A stretch of DNA of 64,000 bases, taken from UHGV virus genome UHGV-0125821; one strand, 5' to 3'. Positions 26,032 through 62,286 of this stretch are shown piece by piece. The translations under genes and the position numbers were made by a program. How positions within the stretch are numbered: position 1 is the stretch's first letter; each line of letters opens with the position of its first letter. Under the pieces are notes generated by a model. It was given only the letters and a program-made list of their open reading frames with translations. It was not told where the DNA came from and made no database searches. The stretch comes from a virus.

Positions 26032-26135
26032 AATACTGACTGTTGCGCCCTGGCATTATCGTGGGGTATATTTCTACGGCACCTTAGAAAAACGGGTGCC
26101 GGGATTGGAACCCCGGATAATGCAAAAGGCGACAC

Positions 26136-26160
26136 AGACGCCGAAAGCGTCTTTTTTTTT
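26136..26160 (+). terminator. intrinsic terminator
   Basis: GACGC cgaaa GCGTC followed by T9. Confidence 0.6.
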
Positions 26161-26345
26161 GTGTCATGCCATCGCACAGCCATACGTAGCGTTTAGCTCA
26201 GAGATCAATGGTAGTGCTGGCTGGGCTGCCGAAAGGCAGGCCGGTTCCCTTTTGCGCCGGTAGTTCCAACCCAGTCAGTGCTACCGCCATTGAGATTGGA
26301 ACCTCACGCGGTAGCTCCTTAAATTAGCAAAAGGAGGCTGCCAAT

Positions 26346-27006: not shown

Positions 27007-27030
27007 AGCAGGCTTAATAGTAAGCCTGCT
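27007..27030. terminator. 10-bp hairpin between convergent genes
   Basis: AGCAGGCTTA atag TAAGCCTGCT. Confidence 0.5.
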
Positions 27031-27037
27031 ATGTCAA

Positions 27038-27871
27038 TCACGAATCTCTCTGACAATTCAGAAACATAAACGCCCGCTTGTCTGTTAAATCCGTAACATA
27101 ATACTCTCTCATGCCTGTAGGTTTTATTCTACGAGCATATACAAACTTATGAACTGGTTGTTTTTCCCCATAACTTACATCAGTCCTAAATTCATCAACC
27201 ACGCTACCATCTTTTTCAGTTTCCTTTCTCACTAGCTGATTTTCTAATACAGGCTTTGATTCGTCCATGCCACTAAAAGCATCCTGACCTGTGCTGTTGC
27301 CTCGGTTTCCGCGTGGCAAATCCCATGAAAAATAAGTGCCATAGTCAGTAATCACACGATCCCATGTTCCGGAATCCCCCATATAGTTAGAACGCTCCCC
27401 CTTGTAAGTTACAGCCACCTTACAGGCATACGTTTCACCATTATTTTTTTTATCATGTCCAGCCATGCTTGCAGGAGTTGCAGGGGAATTATGAATAGAT
27501 GCGCTTACATCATCTTGCGTTAATTCCTCAACTGGAGCAAATTCATATATGGGTGTGCCGAGGCTATTTAAATATAACTTATATCTAACCCTAAGCGCAC
27601 TTCCATCAGAGAATTCATACGTTCCCAGACATTGGAGCTTATTTTTTTCTCTTATCTCATTGATCTGATTATAAGCATCAATTACAGAGATTGCTTCCTG
27701 ATCGTCCTTAAGCAGTTCATTATAATCATCGATTAACATCTGTCTGGTTTTAGGGGCATTACAGTCAATTTTGCTAAAATCATAAGCAAAGGCAAATGTG
27801 GGAACAGAGAGAGCAACAACAGTAGCAAGTATTGTTGAGGAACATCTTTTCCCATTTTTTATAAAAAACAT
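27038..27871 (-). CDS. secreted protein with cleavable signal peptide, AT-rich gene
   Basis: start set at MFFIKNGKR (SD GGAG); signal peptide ending AFA; 4 Cys in mature part. Confidence 0.6.
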   Translation of the reverse strand: MFFIKNGKRCSSTILATVVALSVPTFAFAYDFSKIDCNAPKTRQMLIDDYNELLKDDQEAISVIDAYNQINEIREKNKLQCLGTYEFSDGSALRVRYKLYLNSLGTPIYEFAPVEELTQDDVSASIHNSPATPASMAGHDKKNNGETYACKVAVTYKGERSNYMGDSGTWDRVITDYGTYFSWDLPRGNRGNSTGQDAFSGMDESKPVLENQLVRKETEKDGSVVDEFRTDVSYGEKQPVHKFVYARRIKPTGMREYYVTDLTDKRAFMFLNCQRDS

Positions 27872-28163
27872 TTCATTAACTCCATACTTTACCATCTTAG
27901 CCGCGAGCGCGGTCCCTAAAACCCTTAACTTCACTGCACCGTCCTTCATGCAATCAAAATGACTTTTATGTTATAAAAATAATCAGCAAAATCAACATGA
28001 TTTAGGCCAAATTTCGGTCAAAAATAAAATCCACAAAAAGTGGTTGACACTATTTTGGAAATCACAAACTGCACATAATCCATCGCGCTAACGGCTCCCG
28101 TTGAAGGTTCTTTTGACGATTAACTTTCAGCCGAAGCGCGGTAGGGAGTCATAACGCCAAAGC

Positions 28164-28188
28164 AGGCCGCCATGTGCGGCCTTTTTTT
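28164..28188 (+). terminator. intrinsic terminator immediately upstream of next gene
   Basis: AGGCCGC catgt GCGGCCT followed by T7. Confidence 0.55.
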
Positions 28189-28215
28189 GTATCCGTCATC
28201 CGTGGAGGAAGGACA

Positions 28216-28869
28216 ATGGAAAAGATCGCAATATTCAGCCTGACCACCAGCAAGCCTCAAATGCTCACTGCAATACTGAAAGACGGTGCTCTCATTATTA
28301 ACGAAGTAAAACCCCTCCCCGCGTCAGCATTGGAGCAAAAGCAAAAAATTCCTCCAGCTATAGCAGCCCTGCGGAAAAGCAAATTTAAGGTACTGGTAGA
28401 CGAAATTACGCCAACGATCTCCGCTGGCACCGGAGCAAGCCAGGTGACTCTCAAGACCCGTCATGCCGATGGCAGAGCAGCAATCATCGTCGGGATGGAA
28501 AGATACAGAGAGTTAAAACTCCAGAAGCTATTATCCCTGCCGCAAAATAACAAAGGTGCTTTCGAAATCCCTGACTCCATCGTTGACACCGAATACAACG
28601 GTAACGGAGAAGAAGTCTACCGGGTGAACTGGCAGGATATCAGGCCGGAGCATATTCTGATGATCCTGTGTTGCTACGCAACCGTATACCACAACGTTGC
28701 CAGTGCGGATTACGTAGAGCAGATGATCGGTACAGTCGAGAAAGAGCAAAAAACAGGCATACTCGCTTCGTTCCTGTCCATTATTGGGCATGAAAAAGTT
28801 AAAGCAGGCACCTCCCAGCCAAAGTCACTGACTGGGAAAGAAGTTGATGAAGATACCGTGATACTTTGA
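28216..28869 (+). CDS. hypothetical protein
   Basis: start set at MEKIAIF with SD GGAGGAAGG. Confidence 0.6.
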   Translation: MEKIAIFSLTTSKPQMLTAILKDGALIINEVKPLPASALEQKQKIPPAIAALRKSKFKVLVDEITPTISAGTGASQVTLKTRHADGRAAIIVGMERYRELKLQKLLSLPQNNKGAFEIPDSIVDTEYNGNGEEVYRVNWQDIRPEHILMILCCYATVYHNVASADYVEQMIGTVEKEQKTGILASFLSIIGHEKVKAGTSQPKSLTGKEVDEDTVIL

Positions 28870-29004
28870 TCACATTAGTAGCTTTGTTAACTCCCTCAAT
28901 ACCAGGTAGAAGAGTAACAAAAATATTGACGCGAGTATTTGAGTGGTCAATGAAGCGTTCATAAACAGATCAATTAGCATTAATAATTCGAAGATAACAT
29001 CCAT
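28870..29004 (-). CDS. 44-aa hydrophobic peptide (single TM), type I toxin-like
   Basis: MDVIFELLMLIDLFMNASLTTQILASIFLLLFYLVLRELTKLLM; SD GGAG 9 nt upstream; hand translation, may be off by 1 nt. Confidence 0.35.
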   Translation of the reverse strand: MDVIFELLMLIDLFMNASLTTQILASIFLLLFYLVLRELTKLLM

Positions 29005-29197
29005 GTCATTCACTCCGTTTAATTTTTAATCTAATGCCAGCAAATGAAGCTGGCCCCCGCATAAAGATTAATGAAAGTCACTTGTCACCAGTGAGGGGAT
29101 TTATGAACCACATCCCCCTGAACTGGTGGCCTGTCTGTTTCTCGCATTTCACACCCTGCATACAGTTTCCCCCAGGTTATGACTGAGAGGCTTTGTT

Positions 29198-29527
29198 ATG
29201 GGCTATAGCAGACTCGACGATAGGTACATTGAAGACGATATTTTTCGTGCGCTGTTTCACCAGGAAATGATTAAGCGGGTATCGGAGTATCACTCTGATA
29301 ATTTCCAGTACACGATAAAGATTGATGAAGTATATCGTTCAGATCTTGCAGCCTACCGGGCGTATGGCAATGCAGATTTGCGCTGGGTATTCCGGGTGCT
29401 GGTGGGCCATGAGTCAGAAATGGAAGAAATGCCCGCAGGGACCACGTTAACTCTTCCTGATGTGGCATGGCTGAGGAACAAGATCCGTGATTACGCGAGC
29501 GCGGAACCGGAGATAGAAAATGCCTGA
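29198..29527 (+). CDS. hypothetical protein
   Basis: 109-aa ORF. Confidence 0.55.
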   Translation: MGYSRLDDRYIEDDIFRALFHQEMIKRVSEYHSDNFQYTIKIDEVYRSDLAAYRAYGNADLRWVFRVLVGHESEMEEMPAGTTLTLPDVAWLRNKIRDYASAEPEIENA

Positions 29528-41404: not shown

Positions 41405-41485
41405 CCAAATTGGAACCAGATACAAAACTGCACCATAACAGCACCTAACTGGTGCCAGATAAACACCAATTAGGCACCATTAAGG
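41405..41485. repeat. centromere-like array of GG(T/C)(G/A)CCA motifs upstream of parF
   Basis: TGGAACCAG, TGCACCAT, GGTGCCAG, ACACCAAT, GGCACCAT. Confidence 0.45.
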
Positions 41486-41513
41486 CATAAAAAAGGCTGC
41501 AATTTGCAGCCTT
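41485..41513 (-). terminator. intrinsic terminator after parR
   Basis: AAGGCTGC aattt GCAGCCTT followed by T-run on minus strand. Confidence 0.55.
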
Positions 41514-41531
41514 AAACCAGCACATCTTCTG

Positions 41532-62192: not shown

Positions 62193-62286
62193 TAATTCTT
62201 CCCCCAAATGCGGGGGAAGAACAACGGAAATCACAAACTGAGCATACTCTCCTTTGGTTCATTGCTTATGAAGGGGCTATGTTCGT

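Follow-up and report, generated by a model that had tools for sequence, protein, structure and literature searches.

The 6S RNA of phage lambda is the short PR′-tR′ transcript of lambdoid phages; its promoter, PR′, is constitutive, and read-through is brought about by the Q antiterminator. The put RNA of phage HK022 is a cis-acting, protein-independent antiterminator made up of two stem-loops just past a phage promoter and before terminators. ToxIN loci follow the order promoter, structured RNA, terminator, and protein gene, with the RNA in excess, and the pRNA of phage phi29 is a three-way-junction RNA that works with the DNA-packaging machinery. In Stx phages, the short RNA StxS runs from the late promoter PR′ to its terminator, and this by-product acts as a regulatory small RNA (sRNA) (PMC7547250). 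In phage P1, “strong indications” of as yet undiscovered antiterminators have been noted (PMC10695390). Here, we describe a conserved RNA of ~104 nt encoded directly 5′ of mat, the gene for a maturation control protein, in UHGV virus genome UHGV-0125821, a stretch of 64,000 nucleotides (the window) that we identify as a phage D6-like plasmid prophage. The RNA, which is predicted to start from a D6-type late promoter, folds as a three-way junction and ends at a strong intrinsic terminator shortly before mat, and we tentatively read it as an attenuating leader of that gene. The initial annotation of this interval, made from the letters alone, had proposed either a stand-alone sRNA of ~100 nt or a terminator-controlled leader; a conserved structured RNA of about that length is indeed encoded there, but it does not stand alone, since it is tied to mat in every Mat-encoding lineage examined, P1 included. 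Between an sRNA and a terminator-controlled leader, sequence alone cannot decide.

Like the PR′-tR′ RNAs, the mat leader is noncoding and extends from a late promoter to a terminator placed directly before late genes that appear to need read-through. It differs from them in that its promoter is of the activator type (P1 Lpa class), with no known Q homolog or Q-binding element, and in that the RNA is a covarying three-way junction with no sequence or Rfam relationship to them; among the late promoters that we found, a terminator is present at the mat unit only. A structured RNA right after a phage promoter and before a terminator also recalls HK022 put, which by analogy offers a possible model of read-through. 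The put stem-loops, however, lie side by side without a closing helix, and no sequence similarity is known. Unlike a riboswitch or a classical attenuator, the mat unit yielded neither a competing antiterminator pairing nor a leader peptide. No Rfam family matches the element, either in the window or in five other lineages; the RNA family is previously undescribed and absent from Rfam, although its general kind, a promoter-proximal terminated leader or sRNA at a phage late operon, is known.

The architecture of the RNA was taken from the individual folds of diverged lineages and differs from the minimum free energy fold of the window sequence (Table 1). A closing helix encloses two hairpins and is followed on its 3′ side by a 6-nt linker, the intrinsic terminator, a Shine-Dalgarno (SD) sequence, and the mat ATG. 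The helix begins at the predicted transcription start, and the entire predicted transcript is therefore a structured element. Two covariance models detect the element in the window, R1, which was built with the three-way-junction structure from close relatives (129.9 bits; E = 6e-26), and a second model, R2 (114.3 bits). The minimum free energy fold (28082-89/28135-42 plus 28092-96/28129-33) is not conserved outside the D6/Enterobacter group and was replaced by the three-way junction. One alternative helix, 28082-28089/28135-28142, is kept in type-B variants by the double change U28089A plus A28135U, and it may represent a second conformer or a coincidence. Pairing of the hairpin 1 loop with the linker as a pseudoknot, or with the mat start, was judged by reading to be short and not conserved. 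The statement of the initial annotation that no open reading frame fits in this interval holds: there is none of at least 30 aa on the plus strand between the promoter and the terminator. The sole small frame is a 17-codon TTG frame (28101-28154) that lacks an SD sequence and is open in the window and in an Enterobacter relative, with every difference between the two nonsynonymous. With no open reading frame preceded by an SD sequence, and with only nonsynonymous changes in the TTG frame, a leader peptide was rejected.

Table 1. Features of the mat leader locus and late-promoter motif sites (positions refer to the window unless another record is named)
Feature	Position	Strand	Basis or remark
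Whole conserved RNA element, three-way junction plus terminator, ~104 nt	28085-28188	+	Covariance models; one mat-adjacent copy per genome
TTGACA hexamer	28044-28049	+	Conserved; too distant from the −10 (24 nt) to serve as a −35
Upstream box AAATCACAAACT of the D6-type late promoter	28059-28070	+	Sits where the Lpa-binding “−22 box” of P1 late promoters lies
−10 hexamer CATAAT	28074-28079	+	Predicted transcription start ~28085-28087; geometry as in P1 LPmat
Closing helix, 5′ strand GCGCUA..GGCUCCC	28085-28099	+	Pairs with 28144-28157 (28085-90/28152-57 and 28093-99/28144-50)
Closing helix, 3′ strand GGGAGUC.UAACGC	28144-28157	+	Covariation
Hairpin 1, 8-bp stem UGAAGGUU/AACUUUCA	28102-28129 (28102-09/28122-29)	+	RNAalifold on MAFFT alignment; covariation
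Hairpin 1 loop CUUUUGACGAUU, 12 nt, near-invariant	28110-28121	+	Best conserved single-stranded segment
Hairpin 2, GCCG/CGGU, loop AAGCG, includes invariant GCGCGG	28130-28142 (28130-33/28139-42)	+	Folds; alignment
Intrinsic terminator AGGCCGC-CAUGU-GCGGCCU plus U7	28164-28189	+	Terminator scan; folding
SD sequence GGAGGA and ATG of mat	28204-28218 (SD 28204-28209; ATG 28216)	+	Sequence
mat, maturation control protein, 217 aa	28216-28869	+	99.5% identical to D6 Mat, 34% to P1 Mat
Late-promoter motif sites	28059, 32566, 43062, 45833, 54465, 62228	+	Window motif scan
Further late-promoter motif copies, rest of D6 (MF356679)	19215, 25241, 31531	+, −, −	Before lysozyme-like, portal, and holin genes

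The helices of the element covary across relatives, a check that had been suggested when the unit was first noted. Because covariance-model alignments lean toward the structure of the model, the count was made both on such alignments and on a structure-blind MAFFT alignment. In the covariance-model alignment A7, with 14 members, 88.8% of cells pair, compared with 31 to 49% when the partners are slid, and double (compensatory) changes occur in 15 of 32 pairs, a value reached by none of 500 shuffles. An alignment with more lineages (A9) raises the count to 21 of 32 pairs; one of its rows is false, the R2 match at 41443-41518 being a minus-strand terminator and not a homolog, and the A7 count is the cleaner of the two. 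On the MAFFT alignment, 79% of cells pair (versus 35 to 54%), 11 pairs show double changes, and the covariation score is 0.255 versus 0.133 (0 of 500); RNAalifold run on it recovered hairpin 1 and the terminator independently. Changes on both sides affect 10 of the 13 closing-helix pairs in A7 and 11 of 13 in A9, as where C28095-G28148 becomes U-G, U-A, or G-C and C28097-G28146 becomes A-U, and the pair that closes the hairpin 1 loop flips between U-A and A-U (7:7). The terminator stem pairs in 99 to 100% of cells across lineages, with G-C to A-U compensation in the Enterobacter type. The loop core UUUUGAC is invariant save for UUUUGGC in three lineages (L166, L167, and L209), as is GCGCGG in hairpin 2 throughout. 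The junction, the UUUUGAC loop, and GCGCGG are strongly selected, and purifying selection on the leader as a whole is indicated by a nucleotide identity above that of the mat coding sequence. We propose to define a “mat leader RNA” family by the features found together here: a closing helix at the transcription start, a UUUUGAC-type loop, a hairpin 2 carrying GCGCGG, a terminator, and mat less than 30 nt away.

Positions 27900 to 28300 are 99% identical to Escherichia phage D6 (MF356679) and match 121 plasmid records, whose hosts are Escherichia, Salmonella, Shigella, and Enterobacter. The leader unit is intergenic; in D6 it is flanked by mat, a plus-strand gene described as “maturation of virion” and similar to P1 mat, and by a simB-like gene that lies on the minus strand. 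A contig search with a single protein returned one near-identical locus only, and further lineages were gathered through Mat from IMG/VR, metagenomes, and a protein collection, with Mat identities of 77 to 88%, 63%, 50 to 56%, 42 to 44%, and 36%. All of them carry a recognizably related leader, with the end of the terminator 13 to 27 nt before the mat start. R1 recovered one full-length copy 5′ of mat in each diverged lineage, and R2 did so in four newly fetched lineages as well; all D6-related lineages tested with >40% Mat identity have exactly one copy, always just 5′ of mat. This coupling holds at 45 to 99% Mat identity and with upstream neighbors that differ (simB-like, ref, rep, and HEPN). 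Conservation starts sharply at 28044 and continues through the terminator, with the DNA further upstream diverging, and in a distant Enterobacter plasmid the match to the intergenic query is confined to 28062-28193. In 11 of 11 lineage comparisons, the nucleotide identity of the leader exceeds that of the mat coding sequence (97% versus 78%, 85% versus 72%, and 69% versus 61%). Homology with several relatives (E. coli RHB43 and Shigella dysenteriae plasmids) begins exactly at TTGACA; position 28044 marks a recombination joint and the edge of a promoter-leader-mat module.

The TTGACA and CATAAT-like hexamers listed by the initial annotation near 28044 and 28073 are both present, but they do not form the promoter pair that it had assumed. 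The usual sigma-70 hexamer spacer is 16 to 18 nt, and the one here is 24 nt; a promoter scan made no call there, and promoter-like sites in the region are no commoner than chance (4 found, 7.3 expected). Sequence comparison instead makes CATAAT the −10 of a D6-type late promoter with the layout AAATCACAAACT-N3-CATAAT, because the box is enriched before late genes, the positions of P1 LPmat and LPs are equivalent, and the spacing is conserved. With at most one mismatch allowed, the motif AAATMACAAAST-N4-ANNNT matches the window six times (0.15 matches expected), on the plus strand in every case; the sites precede mat, an upfC-like gene, the major capsid gene 23, the pmgB/sit operon, the R/S tail fiber operon (R/S/U), and possibly gene 7, where the site falls within a toxin-antitoxin insertion. 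A 15-mer, GGAAATCACAAACTG (28057-28071), which stands 2 nt before CATAAT, is repeated exactly at 62226 and is followed there, again after 2 nt, by CATACT. This second copy lies between the homologs of gene 16 and gene R (46% identical to P1 R), just past a hairpin, which is the position of LPs, the archetypal late promoter of P1. The P1 annotation places the late promoter LPmat directly 5′ of mat, and in other lineages the box is kept at a constant distance from the RNA.

The D6-type promoters thus resemble P1 LPmat and LPs both in position, 5′ of mat and of gene R (past the hairpin that follows gene 16), and in design, with a box at a fixed distance that is common to late operons, 3 to 4 nt, and a −10 without a −35. 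The P1 box consists of a 9-bp inverted repeat, AAGTNACTT. That of the D6 type is nonpalindromic, with the consensus AAAT(C/A)ACA(A/T)A(C/G)T-N3-(−10), and some relatives carry AAAGTACAAACC, in which only AAGT is shared. The palindromic P1 box was also tried as a motif in the window and was not enriched (24 matches versus 25 expected). P1 late promoters depend on Lpa and on host SspA; by analogy, activation here is presumably by an Lpa-type phage late activator. TTGAC(A/C) is retained 24 to 27 nt 5′ of the −10 in D6, L077/L148, L149/L210/L163, and L166, and 19 nt 5′ of it in P1; it is not retained in L167, L207, and L209. No additional copies of a C1-operator-like repeat, TGATTTAGGCCAAATT, were found.

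The strong intrinsic terminator reported ahead of the next gene is confirmed: a G+C-rich hairpin with a 7-bp stem that includes six G-C pairs (28164-28182) and a 5-nt loop (hairpin ΔG of −12.5 kcal/mol) is directly followed by seven T residues at 28183-28189. The stem sequence GGCCGC/GCGGCC is almost invariant even where the other helices have fully diverged. Only 26 nt separate the U tract from the mat ATG, the motif scan found no late promoter in the interval between mat and gene 26, and mat overlaps gene 26 in other lineages; from this arrangement, mat must be transcribed by read-through, and the same probably applies to genes 26 and 25. The unit probably also heads the mat-26-25 late operon in this phage group. 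In the window, mat and gene 26 are separated by a spacer of 330 bp (28869-29198) that harbors a long hairpin with imperfect pairing and, at 29075, an exact P1-type box, AAGTCACTT, that lacks a −10. Since the two genes overlap in other lineages, this spacer looks like an insertion into the operon. The AlphaFold2 model of Mat (pLDDT of 80) resembles large-terminase nuclease and RuvC-like (RNase H-like) domains (Foldseek probability of 1.0, E of ~1e-3, template modeling [TM] score of ~0.45), which suggests a role in DNA processing, as a nuclease, for the “maturation control” protein; tight control of such a protein would be plausible. Searches of Mat gave no Pfam domain and no PADLOC or ToxN-like match.

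A comparable arrangement is seen in P1. Downstream of the LPmat −10, two hairpins, of which the first has the loop CUUUUCAAAUAU (equivalent-loop sequence, CUUUUCAAA), lie within a 10-bp closing helix, followed by a 21-nt linker, a terminator with the tract U4CU6, an SD sequence, and an ATG at 2827. A diverged P1-type variant carries two compensatory pair changes in the closing helix and keeps the loop. Common descent of the P1 and D6 leaders is plausible but not demonstrated, as it is based on position, topology, and a similar loop and not on score; a single covariance model for the two types was attempted and failed (E = 0.5). The ATG at 2827 corresponds to Met38 of the annotated P1 Mat, for which GenBank gives an ATG start 111 nt further 5′. 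The alignment of D6-type Mat with P1 Mat begins only at Met38, as does PHROG 1837, and in 50 of 82 P1-type loci the upstream ATG and the real one are in different reading frames. Very probably, judging from these comparisons, the first 37 codons of P1 Mat (L011, AF234172, 2716-2826) are not translated and the real start is ATG 2827. Elsewhere in P1 (L011), the ref leader at 2008-2078 gives weak structure-model and Rfam matches, and a 1988 paper on ref reportedly announces “attenuator-antiterminator control” in its title; the neighborhood may hold a second leader with a terminator.

The reading that we favor, and hold only tentatively, is that the unit is a late-promoter-proximal attenuating leader of mat, in which the junction acts as a factor recognition platform that sets read-through and from which a discrete late RNA of ~104 nt is produced. 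During late lytic growth, RNA polymerase would start at the D6-type late promoter, driven, if the analogy with P1 LPmat holds, by an Lpa-type activator. The first ~73 nt of the transcript would fold from the very 5′ end into the closing helix around its two hairpins, and six nucleotides further on the strong terminator would halt most polymerases and release the discrete RNA, leaving mat to be transcribed only by those polymerases that pass it. Such a transcription attenuator would keep the terminase/RuvC-like Mat low or gate its expression. The junction would be a recognition platform on which a trans-acting factor determines how much read-through occurs, this factor being RNA polymerase itself or a protein of the phage or the host; we propose this role because the junction, UUUUGAC, and GCGCGG are strongly selected, though without a competing antiterminator hairpin.

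Several points weigh against this reading. We infer the start site, the efficiency of termination, and the read-through alike, and no candidate antitermination protein is at hand. No antiterminator pairing was found, since in the D6 group the complementarity between the 5′ strand and the 5′ arm of the terminator does not exceed that of shuffles, and in two lineages it is only marginal. A simple leaky terminator would need no conserved three-way junction, and the role of the junction could lie elsewhere, for example in trans. In the L149 type, the U tract is interrupted (UUUCGCCUUUU) and the hairpin is conserved all the same; with its U tract broken, this hairpin may terminate poorly, and the terminator hairpin may be constrained beyond termination. 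Finally, the P1-type leader escapes the covariance model based on D6 (10.9 bits; E = 0.5).

A role in trans leads to the first alternative, which we regard as somewhat unlikely: the terminated ~104-nt RNA would be a trans-acting late sRNA that pairs with phage or host mRNAs or titrates a protein by way of the hairpin 1 loop and other unpaired nucleotides, and mat would be expressed by incidental read-through. The unit has the form of such an RNA, with its own promoter, a predicted discrete start, a paired 5′ end, and a terminator with a long U tail. Its near-invariant hairpin 1 loop might serve as a seed, and the leader is better conserved than the mat coding sequence. StxS sets a precedent for a late-promoter-proximal terminated RNA that acts as an sRNA (PMC7547250). 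A second parallel is the C4 RNA (RF01695) of the same phages, in which, as here, two hairpins (one of them with a loop of 12 nt) sit within a closing helix and which is found in the leader of the operon under its control. C4, however, is processed out and pairs with downstream mRNA sites, whereas the mat leader comes with a start and a terminator of its own, and no site complementary to it turned up downstream. The two RNAs also fail to detect each other: the Rfam C4 model misses 28085-28188, giving no match at 27850-28350 even at E ≤ 10, and the mat-leader model misses the C4 locus at 26204-26291, 1.8 kb upstream. An identity with isrK was considered and rejected, as the weak match (14.7 bits) covers the terminator only, and neither Rfam as a whole, C4, nor isrK gives a match of family level. 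No target for the candidate seed was found within the window, where the complement of the loop is not enriched (9 matches with at most 2 mismatches versus 7.7 expected, none at a start codon) and has no copy in the mat leader or start region. Further, the RNA is never found apart from mat even after gene order has been rearranged, which an independent sRNA gene would not require.

Distinctly unlikely, in our view, is a purely passive element, in which a constitutive and partly leaky terminator lowers mat expression and insulates the gene from upstream transcription (for example, from ref), with the 5′ structure serving only to stabilize the RNA. Low expression would be plausible for a nuclease-like Mat, several lineages have ref, rep, or HEPN upstream on the same strand without another terminator before mat, and the failure to find an antiterminator structure fits equally well here. 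What such an element leaves unexplained is a junction kept by compensation in 15 to 21 of 32 pairs, together with the invariant loop, GCGCGG, and a degree of conservation above that of the coding sequence.

The strict co-inheritance of the RNA with mat could also mean that the RNA is a partner of Mat itself, acting as inhibitor, chaperone, or cofactor, with the terminator ensuring that RNA outnumbers protein, the way it does in type III toxin-antitoxin systems; this we consider improbable. In its favor are the gene order, which is the ToxIN order of RNA, terminator, and protein gene, the persistence of the linkage across rearrangements and down to ~34% Mat identity when P1 is counted, and the RNase H-like nuclease fold of the Mat model. 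The RNA nevertheless has no tandem repeats, and Mat, with no PADLOC, ToxN-like, or Pfam match, does not resemble ToxN; the fold match is moderate (TM score of ~0.45). A bolder form of the same idea, to which we give even less credence, is that the three-way-junction RNA, made in excess, forms a ribonucleoprotein with Mat and acts in DNA maturation or packaging of P1/D6-type phages. By analogy with phi29 pRNA, which shares the three-way junction, or with omega-RNAs, the RNA might guide, scaffold, or restrain the nuclease. If true, this would explain the lasting linkage of RNA and gene through rearrangements, the invariant loop nucleotides, and the conservation of the terminator stem sequence.

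Two further explanations fare much worse. The initial annotation had named, as the outcome that would undo its proposal, a terminator that only ends a longer upstream transcript; in that case, the hexamers would be due to chance. Promoter-like hexamers in the region are indeed not above chance, but the nearest upstream gene is on the opposite strand and the preceding plus-strand gene has its own terminator at 27007-27030; moreover, the promoter box, RNA, and terminator remain next to mat in lineages whose upstream neighbors differ, and the box is a significantly enriched late-gene motif, all of which makes this scenario very improbable. That the region is coding, as an N-terminal extension of Mat such as GenBank annotates in P1 or as a leader peptide in the open TTG frame, is barely credible, given that, 5′ of ATG 28216, the open frame extends no further than GTG 28174, within the terminator, that Mat alignments and PHROG 1837 start at Met38 with the upstream P1 ATG often out of frame, and that the TTG frame has neither an SD sequence nor synonymous differences.

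These results bear on a textbook phage, P1, and on P1/D6-type phage-plasmids that are common in Escherichia, Salmonella, Shigella, and Enterobacter. In the P1 annotation, which would need correction, the sequence of a conserved RNA has been read as protein. The D6-type late-promoter consensus is distinct from the palindromic Lpa box of P1. A strong terminator separates a late promoter from an essential maturation gene, and probably from the baseplate genes 26 and 25 as well, and the long-suspected but unproven antitermination of P1-like phages becomes testable at one short, defined site.

Other features of the window were noted in passing. The simB-like open reading frame upstream of the unit (27038-27949, minus strand) probably has an internal start, an ATG near 27873 with the SD sequence GGAG and a signal-peptide-like N terminus, MFFIKNGKR...FAFA; this start would give an intergenic region of ~340 bp. 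An isrK-family RNA (26079-26157, plus strand; 62.5 bits) lies directly 5′ of the C4 antisense RNA (26204-26291, plus strand; 76.7 bits), and the tandem precedes icd-like and antirepressor genes, forming an immI-type immunity region with two Rfam RNAs. Finally, four phage-borne tRNA genes, Asn-GTT, Thr-TGT, Ser-TGA, and Met-CAT, are located at 667-2845.

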